From: Filomicrobium sp.
GTDB taxonomy: Bacteria > Pseudomonadota > Alphaproteobacteria > Rhizobiales > Hyphomicrobiaceae
Assembly (NCBI GenBank): GCA_040219445.1
Contig: JAVJSM010000003.1
Location: forward strand, 821,020-885,019
DNA: 64,000 nt
Direction: 5' to 3'
Shown: piece by piece, positions 16,201 through 45,784 of the stretch
How positions within the stretch are numbered: the stretch's first letter is position 1
Layout: each line of letters begins with the position of its first letter
Position numbers and translations under genes: made by a program
Notes under the pieces: model-generated
Databases searched by the model: none
Told to the model about the DNA's origin: nothing
What the model saw: the letters and a program-made list of their open reading frames with translations, nothing else

Positions 16201-16275
16201 GAGGCTATAGCTCAGAGGTAGAGCATCTGGGTCAGACCCGGAAGGACGAGGGTTCAAATCCCTTTAGCTTCTCCA
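16201..16275 (+). tRNA. 75-nt class I tRNA gene with encoded CCA and unusual identity. The acceptor stem has G3:U70 (the tRNA-Ala determinant) but the anticodon is CAG (Leu-decoding).
   Basis: Manual fold: acceptor GAGGCTA/TAGCTTC with G3:U70; D arm GCTC-AGAGGTA-GAGC; anticodon arm TCTGG-GTCAGAC-CCGGA; 5-nt variable loop; T arm GAGGG-TTCAAAT-CCCTT; discriminator T then CCA. Confidence 0.6.
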
Positions 16276-16276
16276 C

Positions 16277-16357
16277 GTTCGATGGTCGAACACTGGACTT
16301 TTAATCCAGCTAGCCGAAAGGCTTTCGCAGGTTCGAATCCTGCAATGCGTGTTACCA
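16277..16357 (+). other. tRNA-Sec (selC)-like partial tRNA structure lacking an acceptor stem.
   Basis: 6-bp D-like stem GTTCGA/TCGAAC with a 3-nt loop. Anticodon arm CTGGA-CTTTTAA-TCCAG (the E. coli selC stem is identical; the loop gives anticodon UUU). Long variable arm with GCC-GAAA-GGC. T arm GCAGG-TTCGAAT-CCTGC. No 5' strand pairs with the 3' AATGCGTG. A hairpin follows (ATGCGT...ACGCAT). Confidence 0.35.
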
Positions 16358-39130: not shown

Positions 39131-39652
39131 ATGGCAGGCCAGTCGGGGAATGCGTTGAAATCGCAAGCATATGAGCTGGGCAGCTGGATGCTTTTTCTGG
39201 CTGCGGCCGTCATTGTTGCGGCTTTGGCTTTCGAGTTTCTGGGCGGTTATCGGCCCTGCCCGCTTTGTCTGCAGCAGCGCTACGCCTACTATGCTGGCAT
39301 TCCACTACTTTTCGGTGCGCTCGTGCTGTTGAGTTCTGAAAAAGAGCGGACGGCTGCCATCTTATTTTTCGTCGTCTCGCTGGCGTTCCTGTTTAACTCT
39401 GGGTTGGGAGTATATCAGGCGGGGGCCGAGTATGGTTTCTGGCCGGGGCCTCAGGCCTGCGCGGGTGGACAAGACATCACGACCTCAGCCGAAGGGCTGC
39501 TTGGTGCTTTGGAAGAGACCAAAGTGGTCCGCTGTGATGAGCCCGAGTTCTGGTTCCTGGGGCTCACTTTTGCAGGTTGGAATGCTGTGCTTTCGTTTGT
39601 CCTCTTCATCGGATCGTTGAAAGCCGCATTTGCCGCTGTCGATCAGCGCTAA
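39131..39652 (+). CDS. dsbB: Disulfide bond formation protein DsbB-like.
   Basis: GAGGAGAAG Shine-Dalgarno before the ATG. Four TM segments. Cys pairs CPLC (first periplasmic loop) and C...C (second loop). Confidence 0.7.
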   Translation: MAGQSGNALKSQAYELGSWMLFLAAAVIVAALAFEFLGGYRPCPLCLQQRYAYYAGIPLLFGALVLLSSEKERTAAILFFVVSLAFLFNSGLGVYQAGAEYGFWPGPQACAGGQDITTSAEGLLGALEETKVVRCDEPEFWFLGLTFAGWNAVLSFVLFIGSLKAAFAAVDQR

Positions 39653-40870
39653 ATCAATTTCGTCATCAGATTCAGATCACTAGTTGCAAGCTCGGTTGCG
39701 CAGAGAAAAGCGCTTCCGGGGCTTCTGTGGTTTGTTCATCCACTGTCAATTAATTCACCGTCCACAGGCCCAGTTCCTGTCTTTATGTTGCCCAAATGAA
39801 ACGGTTAATAGTTTCTTAACGAAGGGGCGCACCTCGGAGCTGAGTTTGCAAAGAGGAAGTTGAGTGTAGAGCGCCCTGGCAGGCTGAGTTGAGTGAGTTG
39901 GACGTTGTTGTCGTCAGCCTCGTTTTTGTTCTTCGCGGCCTGTGTCTCGGCCGCTGCCTGAGTGCCCTCTCCAGGCAATTGTACCCGCCGCGTTTTGAGT
40001 ATGGCGAACCCGAGTTGTTTGTTTCGAGTCGTTAGAAGTGCGTGGCGTTTCCCCATGAGTCGTTCTCAAGTTTCGTGTGCCGTTTCCCGTTCCGAGTTGG
40101 TTCTTCGTGAGTTGGTGAGCGTTGGTACCCAGTCGTCGAGTTCTGCGACTGAGTTTGTTGCCTACCGTAAGCGTAAGAGTGGTGCGTTGGTTTCGGGGCC
40201 CTCTCCCAAGGACATGCTCCCCGCAGTGTTCGAAGGATTGAGGCGTTCTGTCCGGGCGAAGAAATGTAAGCGTATTGGCCGGCAGGTTAACGCTTCGGCG
40301 AGAGCTCCTGAGTTGCGTTCTGATGCGTTGTGTTGAGTTGGTTGCCTAAGGCGTTGGTACTTCGTTGCGTTTGTGAAGCGTTGTTTTCGTTTGTGATGCG
40401 TATTCCCGGGTCCCCGCCCTGGAAGATGGAACTTGGCCATGACCGGTGACGGTCAGATGCGGATTTGAACCGGCCGGTCGTGGCTTTGTTATCTGAAGGT
40501 TATGTTGGTTTGTGTTGGAGGCGTGTTGTGGAGAGTGATGAGTCGAGTTGGCGTCCGTTGAGTGATGTCGTGACGGATTTGATCGGCGGCGTAACGATTG
40601 AAGCTGACGAATCCTGATGAGCTTTAAGTGGCGTTGGTTGTCGTGTGTTTGTTTGCGTTAAGTGCGGAAATTAAGAGTTTGCCCCGGAAGATTTGAGTTC
40701 GAGACGTTTGAACCTTTGAGGGTTCCGTCTCTTCCAGTTGGCAGATGCGTCGAGCGCTTGAGACTTCGCCTCAAACGAAGTGCTGTATGTCCCGGTTGCG
40801 CGTAGCAGCACGTCAGCGTTCCTCGCATCTGCCGCCCTCAAGACCGGGCGTCGCGGAAGTAAATGGAGCA

Positions 40871-41101
40871 ATGCAAATGCAGATGAGCCCAGAGTATGTC
40901 GACCAGATGCAATGGCACCAAACCCTTGGCTTTGCCCGCCAAGCTTGTGCTCGCGTGTTTCGCGATGGCGGAACGCCTGCTGATGCGCTGAAAGCCTTTG
41001 GGTTTTCGCACAAGGCGCAAGACGTTGGGAATGACTGGAGCAAGGCGGTTGAAGTCATCGCCGAACGCATGTGTGCGACGTCCGATAAAAAGGCGGCCTA
41101 G
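40871..41101 (+). CDS. Small hypothetical protein (77 aa).
   Basis: ATG-start ORF (MQMQMSPEYVDQMQWHQTLGFARQACARVF...) of ordinary composition. Sits immediately after the GT-skewed non-coding region and is followed by a canonical terminator. Confidence 0.4.
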   Translation: MQMQMSPEYVDQMQWHQTLGFARQACARVFRDGGTPADALKAFGFSHKAQDVGNDWSKAVEVIAERMCATSDKKAA

Positions 41102-41162
41102 GTTGGCGCCCGGACGGGCTTACGCTTTGATCACTAGGTTATCAGCCAGTCCTGCAAATTTA

Positions 41163-41190
41163 AGGGCGCCGAGAGGCGCCCTTTTTTGTT
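41163..41190 (+). terminator. Rho-independent terminator.
   Basis: AGGGCGCC-GAGA-GGCGCCCT stem-loop followed by TTTTTT. Confidence 0.6.
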
Positions 41191-41216
41191 GTCCGCTTGC
41201 ATGATGTTGGTGCCGT

Positions 41217-41822
41217 TTAAGGCTCCAGCTCGGTGTCCCAATAGAGGTAATCGAGCCAGCTTTCATGCAGATAGTTCGGTGGAAACATCCGACCATTGCG
41301 GTGTAACTCAAATACTGTTGGGCGGTAGGGAGCCTGCATCGGCAGCATGCCGGCGACTTCAGGCATATCCCCACCCTTTTTGAGGTTACATGGCGCGCAA
41401 GCCGTTACGACGTTGTCCCAACGTGTCAGTCCCCCGCGCGAGCGTGGGATTACGTGGTCGAACGTCAGGTCTTCCTGAATACCGCAGTACTGACAGGTAA
41501 ACCGGTCGCGCAGAAATACATTGAAGCGCGTGAAAGCAGGGAAGAGGGCCGGCTTTACGTAGCTCTTCAACGAGACAACGCTCGGCAGTCTCATTTTAAA
41601 GTTCGGGCTGGAAACATGGCGATCGTACTCAGAGACGATGTTCACACGATCGAGGAACACAGCCTTCACCGCTTCCTGCCAACTCCAGAGCGATAGCGGA
41701 TAATAGCTCAGGGGCCGGAAGTCGGCATTGAGAACCAGGGCCGGAGAGTTGTCCAGCATTGCAGCAGAACGATTCACGTTCGTGCCTCCTGTTGGGTCTT
41801 TTCCAGAATCGGTCCGCGCCAC
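41217..41822 (-). CDS. HNH endonuclease-family protein (McrA-like).
   Basis: C-terminal HNH motif CQYCG...LTFDHVIPRSRGG...NVVTACAPCNLKK. Alternative ATG start at about 41759 (MLDNSPALVLNADF). Confidence 0.8.
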   Translation of the reverse strand: MARTDSGKDPTGGTNVNRSAAMLDNSPALVLNADFRPLSYYPLSLWSWQEAVKAVFLDRVNIVSEYDRHVSSPNFKMRLPSVVSLKSYVKPALFPAFTRFNVFLRDRFTCQYCGIQEDLTFDHVIPRSRGGLTRWDNVVTACAPCNLKKGGDMPEVAGMLPMQAPYRPTVFELHRNGRMFPPNYLHESWLDYLYWDTELEP

Positions 41823-42028: not shown

Positions 42029-42685
42029 TTACTCGGCGCGGTGGGGTTTCGTTGCGTAGTAGGCCCACAAGAGCCTGGCAGCGACGCCGCGCCAGGGCCG
42101 CCAGCGTTCAGCGAGCTCTACAAGCTCATTTTGTGACGGGCGTGATTCGGTTTTGAGAGCTATCCGCGCCGCTTCCTGCAGCGCCAGATCTCCAGGTGCA
42201 AACGCGTCTTGGGTGCCGATGCAGAATAGGCAATAGATGTCCGCCGTCCATGGGCCGATGCCGGGTAAGGCGGTGAGGTGCTCATGGATTTCGTCGATGC
42301 TGGCGGTTTCGAGCTGGCTGAAATTGAGGGTGCCTTCACTTGCTGCCATTGCGATTCCGCGCAGGGTTTTCGTTTTTCCGCGCGATAACCCGACGGACCT
42401 TAGGGTTTCGTCGTTGTGGTTTAAGAAGGTGTCCGGAGAGAATGGTTGGGTCGTGGTTTCAAGCCGCTTCCAGATAGCACCTGCACTGGCAATCGAGAGT
42501 TGTTGGCCCACAACGATGCGGGCTAAGCCGGGAAATCCAGCCGTGTGGCGTCGCAGCGGTGGGTCTCCGATCTGCTTGTGGATCGCTTTGAGGTTGGGGC
42601 AAAGTTTGCGTAATTGTCGGCAGCCGCGTTTGATATCGGCTGTGGTTTCGATGATTGGTTTAGCTGGTTTTTTTCGCGGTGGCAT
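42029..42685 (-). CDS. HhH-GPD DNA glycosylase (AlkA-like DNA-3-methyladenine glycosylase II).
   Basis: Helix-hairpin-helix GPD region LTALPGIGPWTADIYCLFCIGTQDAFAPGDLAL with the catalytic Asp. Confidence 0.8.
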   Translation of the reverse strand: MPPRKKPAKPIIETTADIKRGCRQLRKLCPNLKAIHKQIGDPPLRRHTAGFPGLARIVVGQQLSIASAGAIWKRLETTTQPFSPDTFLNHNDETLRSVGLSRGKTKTLRGIAMAASEGTLNFSQLETASIDEIHEHLTALPGIGPWTADIYCLFCIGTQDAFAPGDLALQEAARIALKTESRPSQNELVELAERWRPWRGVAARLLWAYYATKPHRAE

Positions 42686-43932: not shown

Positions 43933-44577
43933 GTGTTCGCCCTTGTTTGCAGTGCGGCGCGGAGTGCGGTCGTCTTGGTGTTGATGTCGGCGATTGGGCT
44001 GGTTGGCTCTAGCGATGTCGGGTTTGCCAAGGCTCAGGCGGGCGGTGAAGTCGTTTTCGCCCAGAAGCTGGTTGCAGCCGCGCGTGAGCAGCGCACTGTT
44101 CCCGTCATTTATGATCCCAGTTATCGCCAGCTCGAATATCCGATGGGCGATGTGCCGTGGTACGTTGGCGTTTGCACAGATGTTGTCATTCGCGCCTACC
44201 GCAAACTCGGAATTGACCTGCAGCCGCTTGTTCACCGATCACGGTTGGGTTCAGGGGACCGCAACATCGATCATCGGCGTGTCCGAGTTCTGAAAAAGTA
44301 CTTTTCCCGCTATGGCACCAGTTTGAAGGTGAGCAAAGATCCTGGGAATTACATGCCAGGCGATTTGGTTACCTATTACGTGCCCGACGGTACTTTCTCC
44401 AAGACGCATATTGCGATTGTTTCGGACAAACAGACTCTCGCCGGCGTTCCATTTGTGATTCATAACCGTGGTTATGGTGTGCGGGAAGAGGATTGGCTTT
44501 TCGGAAGCGAAATTACCGGACACTATCGTTTCAAAAGGGCTCCGAATATCGAAGGATGGAGTTCTAAGGCCAAATAG
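43933..44577 (+). CDS. DUF1287-domain secreted protein.
   Basis: Signal peptide. Conserved stretch (YDPSYRQLEYPMGDVPWYVGVCTDVVIRAYRKLGIDLQ...HIAIVSD) that I recognise as the DUF1287 family. Confidence 0.65.
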   Translation: MFALVCSAARSAVVLVLMSAIGLVGSSDVGFAKAQAGGEVVFAQKLVAAAREQRTVPVIYDPSYRQLEYPMGDVPWYVGVCTDVVIRAYRKLGIDLQPLVHRSRLGSGDRNIDHRRVRVLKKYFSRYGTSLKVSKDPGNYMPGDLVTYYVPDGTFSKTHIAIVSDKQTLAGVPFVIHNRGYGVREEDWLFGSEITGHYRFKRAPNIEGWSSKAK

Positions 44578-44947
44578 ACTTCTGATTTTGCACCTCGCCG
44601 CAGTGCTTTATCTAGTGTGTTAGGTGGCCGGATATGGCGTTGCTCAATGTCATCTCGACCAGGTTTGGCGGCCCAAAGCTGCACAGACGTGTGCTAGTTA
44701 ACGCGGTTAAATGTGCGCGGCACTTTTCTGCGTGTTCGCGCTTTTCATCCCTGAATATAATTCATAAGAAATCTTCTCATTATCGTTAATTTAACGCTAA
44801 ACATTTTGATGATTTTGAAGTAGAATATTCGAGCATAAATTGATTCTTCTTTCCGGCTGATTTTTGAGTTGGAGGGTCAATCTAAATTGACGGCGGCTCA
44901 TTCCGCTAGAGATTAGCCTCGTGCTCAGAAGCTTGGTGTTGGAGCGA

Positions 44948-45784
44948 ATGAATCTTTTGCCCTTAATAGGAACGGAAGGCCTCATCATCTTTATGGTGAT
45001 CGTGCTCGTTAGCTTGATCGCGGTTCGGATGTTGGCGCCGTACAGCGTTCATACTGAGGTTCCTTTGGGGTTGGCTGCTGCTGAGGATGATCGTCCTCAG
45101 CCAAAGCGGGTGACTGCAACTCGTCGCGTTGTTCGTAAGTCTTCAGGTTTTCGATTGCCGGTTGTTTCGGCTCTTCCCGTAGATCGGGCTCAAATCGCTG
45201 CTGCCAAGTACCGGCAGGCGGCGCTTGGTGCGATTGATCGGGGTGCAGCCTTTGCTGGCAAGGCTCGCGGCTCGGTTCGTGCGTTTTTGAACGGAGCTGC
45301 CGAAAAGAAGGGGGCATATCGGCGGGCTTCGGTTCGGCCGATGTTTGCGATGAGCGCAGAAAAACAAAATCTTGATGAAGCTGCAACTTCGGTGGTGCGG
45401 GACGCGCATGATGAGTTGCATCTGGATGGCGATGTGCAGTGGGACCGTCTGAATGACTTTGTTGCAGAGGGTATCGCTAGAACACAGCAGGTTGAAGATT
45501 TGCACGATGCGGCTGCGCGCCAACTCGATGCTGTTGATTACGCTTACGAGCGGATGCTGCTCGAACTGAGCGAGGTCTTGCCCGGTGTTGTTGGTGCCCA
45601 GGAAACGTGCCGCAGCAATCGTGATGAAGCCTATGGCGTGGCTCAGTCCAGCGGTGAGGTGACGGGGTCGGAGCCGCTATCTCGGGCAGCTGCTGCCGCA
45701 ACAGAAAATTCCGGATCCGCTCTCGCGACGGATAGGCACGCTGAGCCAGTTCGATCGTCTTCTTCTGAACCAGTCGCAGCATAA
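44948..45784 (+). CDS. Hypothetical membrane-anchored protein, preceded by an AT-rich segment.
   Basis: N-terminal TM (LIIFMVIVLVSLIAV). Ala/Arg-rich body with no recognisable motifs. The upstream 44740-44900 is strongly AT-rich relative to the 60% GC background. Confidence 0.45.
   Translation: MNLLPLIGTEGLIIFMVIVLVSLIAVRMLAPYSVHTEVPLGLAAAEDDRPQPKRVTATRRVVRKSSGFRLPVVSALPVDRAQIAAAKYRQAALGAIDRGAAFAGKARGSVRAFLNGAAEKKGAYRRASVRPMFAMSAEKQNLDEAATSVVRDAHDELHLDGDVQWDRLNDFVAEGIARTQQVEDLHDAAARQLDAVDYAYERMLLELSEVLPGVVGAQETCRSNRDEAYGVAQSSGEVTGSEPLSRAAAAATENSGSALATDRHAEPVRSSSSEPVAA

Follow-up and report, generated by a model that had tools for sequence, protein, structure and literature searches.

In a 64,000-nt stretch of a Filomicrobium sp. 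genome (Hyphomicrobiaceae; contig JAVJSM010000003.1 of assembly GCA_040219445.1, hereafter the window), a gap of 1.2 kb separates dsbB from a downstream gene for a 74-aa protein that we call ORF3 (gap at positions 39653-40870). It is rather probable that this gap represents a conserved and virtually unannotated transcription unit of Hyphomicrobiaceae, in which small open reading frames (ORFs) and a cis-acting structured RNA are embedded in a self-renewing pentamer repeat. The structured RNA and two small ORFs are the most solid of the new items. The most curious one is the repeat itself, which extends over coding and non-coding sequence and is found family-wide. A first-pass annotation of the window had described the gap as a non-coding stretch with an extreme G+T skew and a dispersed GAGTTG motif. 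That observation is partly confirmed, as it was real yet mis-described: the region is a compact, conserved, unannotated locus, not an empty kilobase. We demonstrate here its ORFs, its RNA structure, the statistics of its repeat and its synteny.

The identity of dsbB (39131-39652) is supported by the Pfam DsbB family (E=3.8e-26), and the closest relatives of the gene are all from Filomicrobium or Hyphomicrobiaceae. The 74-aa protein encoded 3' of the gap is identical to a hypothetical protein from a Filomicrobium metagenome-assembled genome. A DsbB-anchored scan with one genome per species yielded 80 loci, and the gene order dedA-dsbB-[847-1441 nt]-74-aa gene is kept in 56 of them. Separate look-ups revealed the same gene context around distant ORF3 homologues. 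With dsbB identities of 47-79%, the relatives are at family-level divergence. The repeat and gap statistics reported below are pooled over 57 orthologous gaps. When the gap of the window is compared with the others by BLASTN, three conserved islands stand out and the remainder is unalignable. Island 1 is a promoter-like block, island 2 corresponds to the first of the small ORFs, and island 3 is the structured RNA.

The structured RNA is found on the + strand at 40735-40838, with its helices at 40740-40833, and it comprises a long closing stem, P1/P1b, and the hairpins P2 and P3. RNAalifold, run on 32 and then on 57 sequences, predicts three helices with 23 pairs. In the 57 sequences, 96.4% of the cells are paired and 22 of the 23 pairs show compensatory, both-side changes. 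None of 500 shuffles reached the observed values, and slid partners pair at 21-46%. P2 seems by eye to covary, but it was left out of the count since the aligned sequences lose their register at this hairpin. Almost no variation is seen in the P3 loop (C.GGTy..GCGT), GAGUU flanks P1, and the UUCCUC internal loop is found in close relatives only. A covariance model detects exactly one copy per locus, from 58 sources, and in the window it scores 99.5 bits on the + strand versus 27.9 on the - strand. In 55 of 56 loci the element is accompanied by ORF3, and in 19 neither is present. It is located on the coding strand, 40-270 nt upstream of ORF3 and mostly at less than 200. Folding of the single sequence 40695-40890 also yields all helices (z = -3.47). 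The check by conservation and covariation that the first-pass annotation had proposed turned out positive on both counts, with a gap kept in 56 loci and nearly all pairs covarying.

In sequence comparisons, the element combines two hallmarks of riboswitch-like leaders, namely a structure maintained by compensatory changes and a constant position upstream of one gene family. The structured RNA would most likely act in cis, as a leader controlling ORF3. It resembles cis-regulatory RNAs of 5' untranslated regions, such as riboswitch candidates and protein-binding leaders, by its compact multi-stem architecture, its strong covariation, its near-invariant loop or junction nucleotides and its location, always upstream of the same gene family. 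In contrast with those, it has no match among the Rfam 15 families, no terminator or ribosome-binding-site-sequestering platform was recognised in it, and the downstream gene codes for a 74-aa protein, not for an enzyme or a transporter. No U-tract follows any of its stems, or the hairpin P0 that precedes it, in the minimum free energy fold. The suggested search of Rfam was unproductive: at the gathering threshold, Rfam 15 reported only tRNAs in the window and 8 relatives, and a permissive search of 39500-41300 (E <= 10) gave no score above 18 bits and no meaningful overlap with 40735-40838.

ORF3 itself (40877-41101, + strand) encodes a conserved hypothetical protein with 90 homologues, none of which has a Pfam domain. 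A profile search identified 104 clusters of this family in 1.84 billion representatives. The AlphaFold2 (AF2) model of the 74-aa protein has four helices and a predicted local distance difference test score (pLDDT) of 86.5. Neither sequence nor fold searches of the PDB gave a significant match, and Pfam and NCBIfam had none either. Weak profile matches to tetratricopeptide repeat (TPR) proteins were obtained, and they suggest that the sequence resembles those proteins only as a helical hairpin. More than 90% of 68 family members end in ..AA (RRAA, KKAA, LALAA), which we take to be reminiscent of the ClpXP degrons of ssrA or CtrA type. We also considered FcrX, a protein of 116 aa that is related to FliJ and whose gene adjoins ctrA (PMC11929396); on these three grounds, ORF3 is not FcrX.

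The first-pass annotation had seen no plausible ORF in the gap. This was incorrect, as two conserved ones are found inside. ORF1 (93 aa, 40055-40336, + strand), which coincides with island 2, starts at a conserved ATG (40055) within a longer open frame (39962-40336). Its N-terminal half is of low complexity, rich in S, R, V, A and L, and encoded by the pentamer repeat. Its C-terminal half harbours a conserved basic helix, SPKxxLxxVFxxLRRxARxxKxxRIxxxL. Members of the ORF1 family were detected by jackhmmer, run on stop-free segments of the + strand, in 43 of the 57 gaps, with E values of 1e-33 to 1e-4 in an initial phmmer search. Amino acids are conserved and third codon positions vary. The alignment near 40184-40290 varies chiefly at every third base, and the mismatches between the window and L001, its closest relative, are enriched in the third-position phase of ORF1. 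At conserved residues, the codon entropies for positions 1/2/3 are 0.16/0.27/1.85 bits for Pro, 0.37/0/1.83 for Leu and 0.43/0.67/1.69 for Ala. Such third-position wobble at conserved residues is a signature of translation. The product of ORF1 is identical to the database protein P0091, and a profile search of 5.8 billion proteins retrieved 5 members in all, which makes the family effectively unannotated. Pfam and NCBIfam searches with ORF1 gave no match.

ORF2 (40528-40617, + strand) codes for a 29-aa peptide, VESDESSWRPLSDVVTDLIGGVTIEADES, and was recognised by the conservation of both the peptide and its start signals. The motif sWRP(I/L)SD(V/I)V..l..gV is found as a separate ORF in approximately 20 loci. 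In 11 relatives, a GGAGG or GAGAGG sequence is conserved 6-7 nt ahead of an invariant GTG start codon; in the window, this ribosome-binding site is the GGAGG at 40516-40520. Synonymous variation is present in the nucleotide alignment of ORF2, as judged by eye only. On the basis of their conserved frames and amino-acid similarity, ORF1 and ORF2 both appear to be genuine small protein-coding genes. The ORF1 protein would have a disordered N-terminus rich in S, R, V, A and L followed by the conserved basic helix, and the ORF2 product would be a helical peptide. Together, the two ORFs make up about a third of the 1.2-kb stretch.

As for the composition of the gap, the + strand is G+T-rich, as had been reported. 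Its G+T content is 0.61 over 39653-40870, and its 600-nt windows peak at 0.653, the highest value in the 64 kb (mean 0.561, sd 0.028). Since this peak is only about 3 sd above the mean, the skew is moderate, and to call it extreme was an overstatement. The G+C content of the surroundings is 0.55-0.58 rather than the 60% initially given. Exact GAGTTG is present in 8 copies, all on the + strand and within 39886-40550. The announced dozen is attained only with variants: the core has 13 GAGTT and 17 G[ACT]GTTG, and a second tally of sites gives 11 GAGTT[GT] and 9 G[CT]GTTG. The enrichment is real: the remainder of the window predicts 0.23 copies of GAGTTG, and dinucleotide shuffling of the region itself 1.7, with 8 reached in none of 1000 shuffles. 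GTTG is found 31 times on the + strand of the gap and never on the - strand, and TGAGT 15 times versus 4.3 expected. The strand asymmetry of G[CA]GT (motif versus complement) reaches 29 per 600 nt in the gap, compared with a mean of 2.3 (sd 4.3) elsewhere in the window, and is unique within the window.

The relatives place this motif in a broader context. With the promoter and RNA element trimmed off, the commonest words of the 57 gaps are TTGCGT, GTTGCG and GCGTTG, and then GAGTTG. In the pooled gaps, GCGT occurs 1342 times versus 90 for ACGC, and GAGT 493 times versus 44 for ACTC, so that the complement of G(C/A)GT is 11-15 times rarer; GGGT is symmetric. The asymmetry does not require an excess of G+T, as L081 shows a ratio of 12:1 at a G+T content of 0.50. 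When 500-nt windows are compared over approximately 12 kb, the most asymmetric one falls in this gap in every one of the 57 loci, with a mean of 15.7 inside and 0.3 outside. GAGTTG is the window's local form of a family-wide, strand-specific, degenerate repeat, G(C/A)GTY. The repeat runs through the leader and spacers as well as the N-terminal, low-complexity half of ORF1. The skew stops abruptly ahead of the RNA element and ORF3, whose third positions are ordinary.

The repeat also has a register. The absence of tandem periodicity, noted initially, holds for the window alone, where Tandem Repeats Finder (TRF) detects one weak period-10 array (40312-40345, 3.5 copies, 76% match). It does not hold for the 57 gaps together: all-pair spacings of G[CA]GT peak at 5, 10, 15, 20 and 25 nt, and the period-5 power is 14.2 versus at most 1.2 in shuffles. 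Of the 112 short arrays reported by TRF in the gaps, 61 have a period of 5, 10, 15, 20 or 30, with units such as CGTTGCGTCC. The arrays of the relatives are short and degenerate, with 2-7 copies and 69-100% matches. The gap of L027 harbours, at its positions 784-961, an array unlike these pentamer-type ones, with a 47-nt unit present 3.8 times at 96% identity. Five CcrM sites (GANTC) are found in the gap of the window, three of which are GAGTC (40026, 40057 and 40540), and one overlaps the start codon of ORF1. As judged by eye, the GAGTC sites are common to the window and L001 and are not found in more distant relatives. We therefore take them to be a by-product of GAGTY units and have set aside a role as CcrM sites.

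Does the repeat reflect a constraint on the nucleic acid or on the protein? Within ORF1, 54 of 83 occurrences of GAGTT, and all 4 in-ORF GAGTT[GT] copies of the window, are in phase 0, where they encode Glu-Leu or Glu-Phe. GCGT, for its part, is distributed over the three codon phases (138/172/203), which indicates that the motif acts at the nucleotide level. CGT accounts for 59% of the Arg codons in the low-complexity half of ORF1, compared with 13% in flanking genes, and GTT, GCG and TTG are raised likewise; the conserved C-terminal core has ordinary codon usage. The spacers, the leader and the N-terminal part of ORF1 have k-mers in common. Together, the occurrence of GCGT in all phases, the restriction of the codon skew to the low-complexity half and the presence of the same words in non-coding parts argue that the repeat is primary and that the protein follows. 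A perfect (GCGTY)n is free of stop codons in all forward frames, and each frame encodes A, L/S, R, C/R and V; the five most frequent residues in ORF1 are S, R, V, A and L. The repeat is tolerated inside ORF1 because it contains no stops and gives the same amino-acid mix in every frame.

The individual copies of the motif are conserved no better than background between the window and L001 (0.70 versus 0.695 for their surroundings), which indicates that they turn over, and purifying selection on single copies was not seen in this comparison. Nor do the copies share a consistent context across species that would display them in unpaired loops: their predicted accessibility is higher in the window (0.57 versus 0.36) and not in L002 or L031. 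We propose that the repeat would renew itself through short tandem duplications. It would be a fast-evolving, largely unstructured G/U-rich spacer that also serves as the template of a disordered protein region, and selection would bear on its presence rather than on its exact sequence.

Several observations weigh against the picture that we propose for the locus. We found no expression platform for the structured RNA, and the ribosome-binding site of ORF3 is free in the predicted fold. ORF1 does not have a well-placed ribosome-binding site, the nearest GGTGAG being approximately 15 nt off, and gene callers almost never predict it. Furthermore, ORF1 was not detected in 14 of the 57 gaps and ORF2 in over half of them; these gaps may have diverged, or the ORFs may really be absent from them. 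Lastly, the occurrence of the same tetramer on the same strand in 57 species is hard to explain by slippage alone, which favours selection on the motif itself.

Such selection is central to the alternative that survives best, which we regard as possible rather than probable. The G(C/A)GU units, on their 5-nt register, would form a multivalent, single-stranded platform for an oligomeric RNA-binding protein, possibly the ORF1 product. Binding would control the stability or the translation of the small ORFs and ORF3, or else the RNA would titrate the binder. That the motif is a nucleotide-level one, in all codon phases and in non-coding parts, that it is strand-specific, and that it is kept in 57 of 57 species at this locus only make a role of this kind conceivable. 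The motif also persists without any G+T bias, its complement is rare enough that the units would be left unpaired, the P3 loop has an invariant GCGU, and P1 is flanked by GAGUU. The 5-nt register corresponds to the geometry used by TRAP (trp RNA-binding attenuation protein) with (GAGUU)11 (PMC1474065). Conversely, the turnover of single copies, the accessibility that is raised in the window only, the short contiguous runs (no more than 5 units, or 3 for (G/U)AG) and the coding nature of a third of the region speak against a platform, and no candidate for the binder emerged. A sequence-specific binder of G(C/A)GU is accordingly a tentative proposition. It is tempting, and more tentative still, to speculate that the repeat is a selected, multivalent RNA platform of a hitherto undescribed kind, maintained on one strand and at one locus throughout the family and through a coding region. 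This RNA might be coated or wrapped by an oligomeric binder, for which the arginine-rich ORF1/ORF2 protein is a possibility, and, together with the three-helix RNA, the binder might time the production of ORF3 as a short-lived four-helix regulator ending in AA.

Comparison with known systems puts bounds on this idea. In TRAP-type leaders, 9-11 (G/U)AG triplets are found in one run, 2-3 nt apart, and the model ligand is (GAGUU)11 (PMC1474065). Like the trp leader of Bacillus subtilis to which TRAP binds, the locus reiterates a short purine-rich unit on one strand, in a 5' leader and with a register of about 5 nt, and GAGUU is one of its two main units. However, the B. subtilis leader has a single contiguous run of 9-11 triplets, whereas the longest G[CA]G run here is 5. 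The dominant unit of the family is GCGU, which does not have the essential A, the array extends over approximately 900 nt and includes coding sequence, and TRAP (MtrB) is a protein of Bacillota. We rejected a TRAP-type triplet array, as (G/U)AG runs reach 2 in the window and no more than 3 across the 57 gaps.

The first-pass annotation had likened the GAGUUG repeat to sponge RNAs. With the CsrB/RsmY sponges for CsrA/RsmA, the locus shares a short motif that recurs many times, irregularly spaced, in a single transcript, and the turnover of copies between species. Those sponges are non-coding RNAs of 100-350 nt that present GGA in hairpin loops, unlike the present G(C/A)GU units, which have no consistent loop context and enclose two ORFs. 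No sponge family was matched in the Rfam scans of the window and of 39500-41300. Membership of the CsrA/RsmA sponges is rejected, since the unit is G(C/A)GT and not GGA, two conserved ORFs are present and accessibility is inconsistent between species. Of the platform initially imagined, what stands is a motif that is a nucleotide-level one, strand-specific and present in every relative; the conserved unit is G(C/A)GT rather than GAGUUG, and its copies turn over and do not lie in consistent loops. The sponge-RNA reading is partly supported and survives only in a modified, unproven form.

Another family of comparisons concerns slippage. Contingency loci are exemplified by the pentanucleotide CTCTT repeats of Neisseria opa genes. 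As in those loci and in coding microsatellites, a pentanucleotide repeat lies partly inside a coding region and would be renewed by slippage; as its period is not divisible by 3, the unit falls in all codon phases. Contingency loci, however, have long, perfect arrays that switch frames, whereas the arrays here are short and degenerate, spread over approximately 900 nt, and maintained throughout a bacterial family at a single orthologous site. A phase-variable locus was ruled out, the window having a single imperfect array (3.5 copies of a 10-mer, 76%) and the relatives only short, imperfect ones.

It is unlikely that the gap is the remnant of one longer gene, a possibility that the first-pass annotation had raised in the form of a decayed remnant or a frameshifted pseudogene. 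In this scenario, stops or frameshifts in the lineage of the window would have broken an ancestral protein of 130-330 aa that consisted of the low-complexity region, the basic helix, a linker and the WRPxSDVV helix, and a large part of the apparently non-coding DNA would be coding sequence in decay. What can be retained of it is that the ORF1 core and the ORF2 motif are fused in one polypeptide in some relatives (P0093-P0095). ORFs of 266-330 aa are present in L044, L065 and L073, and there is a 318-aa gene call in L083. The 330-aa ORF of L044 (positions 183-1172 of its gap) has an ORF2-like stretch by eye, where a search with the ORF2 profile gave no match. The k-mers common to the spacers and the ORF1 N-terminus, as well as SEL/PEL-like peptides in other frames of the leader, are also compatible with a remnant. 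The AF2 model of a fused ORF1-ORF2 relative has helices on both conserved segments and a disordered N-terminus; owing to its low confidence (pLDDT 56.6), it was used for helix positions only. Nevertheless, both ORFs are intact in the window, and ORF2 keeps its ribosome-binding site and GTG in 11 relatives, on which grounds pseudogene status is rejected. Across its approximately 20 loci, ORF2 stands in all three frame relations to ORF1, which indicates that the split form is old and maintained rather than a recent lesion. The leader 5' of ORF1, moreover, also carries the repeat. Given the fused relatives, we consider that the window holds a maintained split version of one protein.

It is very unlikely that the skew is a purely mutational by-product with no selected role, caused by heavy transcription or R-loops and by C-to-T and A-to-G deamination on the exposed non-template strand. 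The codon shifts in ORF1 are all in these directions (CGC->CGT, GTC->GTT, GGC->GGT, AGC->AGT, CTG->TTG, GAA->GAG), and G exceeds C on the non-template strand, as such a process would have it. However, the G(C/A)GT asymmetry persists at a G+T content of 0.50, the conserved ORF1 core has kept ordinary codon usage, and the abrupt end of the skew precedes ORF3, with its ordinary third positions, although ORF3 is presumably on the same transcript. C-to-T changes exceed G-to-A changes no more here (0.109 versus 0.051) than in dedA and dsbB (0.134 versus 0.080), with no difference between the two on small counts, and deamination would not be expected to produce a 5-nt register. A landing pad for a DNA-binding protein, in the form of an array of oriented sites on double-stranded DNA, would fit spacing peaks at 5, 10 and 15 bp by helical phasing and the CtrA-box-like TTAA-N7-TTAA at the promoter, but it is made extremely improbable by the strict single-strand polarity over approximately 900 bp, by the passage of the array across coding sequence and next to an RNA structure, by the turnover of sites, and by a full CtrA box found only in four close relatives.

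Two other candidates were tried and discarded. The consensus of elemental RNA-polymerase pauses is G-10 Y-1 G+1. An array of such sites is not supported, as they number 53.4 per kb in the repeat cores versus 52.3 elsewhere in the window, and YG steps have a G at -10 with a frequency of 0.29, which is no enrichment. A replication origin at the gap is rejected too, the cumulative GC skew climbing monotonically across the region. In a search for long direct or inverted repeats in the gap, only short, cryptic ones were found in addition to the P1 stem.

Coming back to the transcription unit, we infer from the DNA sequence its promoter, its co-transcription and all the functional roles proposed here. 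The order of elements would be a promoter block, a 5' hairpin, a G/U-rich leader, ORF1, a spacer, ORF2, a second spacer, P0 with the three-helix RNA, ORF3 and a terminator. The promoter-like block (island 1, 39718-39811, + strand) was identified by its conservation across relatives. An nhmmer profile places it approximately 80-250 nt past dsbB in at least 35 loci, and CTTnATGTTGCCCAAA..ACGGTTAAT is invariant in an alignment of 12 relatives. On the + strand, a plausible reading has TTTATG (39782-39787) as a candidate -35 box, separated by 17 nt from TTAATA (39805-39810) as a candidate -10 box; a consensus promoter scan made no call at this pair. TTAA-N7-TTAA, the consensus form of the CtrA box, is found at 39805-39819 and overlaps the putative -10 box. 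The full box is present only in the window, L001, L004 and L011, and the half-site ACGGTTAAT is family-wide.

A short GC hairpin follows (39822-39840, + strand), at the presumed 5' end of the transcript. Judged by eye, the window has a weak version of it and relatives have stronger ones, and its pairing is kept despite sequence change in the alignment of 12 relatives (CGGGG..CCCCG, GCCGGGGG..CCCGGC, CGGCGG..CCGCCG). In distant relatives, the palindrome GTTCGCGGAAC occupies this site. The G+U-rich leader of degenerate G(C/A)GTY units (39841-40054, + strand) has a G+T content of 0.625 and 4 copies of GAGTT[GT]. Its final 25 nt or so (CGTCGTAACGGTGAGTGGCGTTTCCCC in relatives) are conserved as far as the ATG of ORF1, and no unusual structure was found in it by folding (z = -0.6).

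Spacer 1, between ORF1 and ORF2 (40337-40527, + strand), is the most G+T-rich part of the gap (0.686), with a predicted fold of -65.5 kcal/mol (z = -1.9). Its segment covered by 40373-40460 is approximately 80% identical to L001 and shows no codon periodicity. A stable GC-rich hairpin, GGCCAUGACCGGUGACGGUC...GACCGGCCGGUCGUGGCU, is also found there, at approximately 40433-40487. Spacer 2 (40618-40700, + strand) is G+U-rich as well, with a G+T content of 0.672 over 40618-40739. Directly 5' of the structured RNA, the predicted hairpin P0 (40701-40731, + strand) is reproduced in the single-sequence fold. Nearly all of 35 relatives have a predicted stable hairpin, of differing sequence, that ends 8-10 nt ahead of the RNA element; no U-tract follows P0.

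The first-pass annotation had correctly noted that a small ATG ORF and then a strong terminator end the region. The ORF starts at 40877, and the intrinsic terminator (41162-41193, + strand) has a 9-bp stem (41162-41183) with 7 GC pairs, followed by the T-run TTTTTGTTGTC. Its suggestion of a very long structured leader or small RNA locus was right in part, given the covarying RNA upstream of ORF3 and the promoter-like block, and wrong in making it 1.2 kb of non-coding sequence, as a third is coding.

Beyond the terminator, an HNH endonuclease gene (41217-41822, - strand) is the convergent neighbour of ORF3 and is conserved in most loci, and a gene for an AlkA-like glycosylase (42029-42685) lies further on. 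Elsewhere in the window, a tRNA (61.5 bits) is followed 5 nt on by a partial second tRNA match (34.4 bits, model positions 10-63), together covering 16201-16343. The G+C content drops to 0.41-0.43 at 44550-45000 (about 0.56 elsewhere in the window), and this stretch may be foreign or regulatory DNA.

Three unannotated elements were thus located in a kilobase that annotation pipelines leave empty, a reminder that the absence of ORF calls in compositionally odd DNA may be misleading. The first consists of two small-protein families that are nearly absent from a database of 5.8 billion proteins. The second, the structured RNA, covaries unusually cleanly, has no counterpart in Rfam, and offers itself as a candidate for a new class of cis-regulatory RNA. 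As for the repeat, which is strand-specific and maintained at its single orthologous site throughout a family of budding, prosthecate alphaproteobacteria, it represents a natural case in which nucleotide-level and coding constraints share the same DNA. Should it indeed form a binding platform, a single sequence would be both an RNA-binding array and the template for a disordered protein region.

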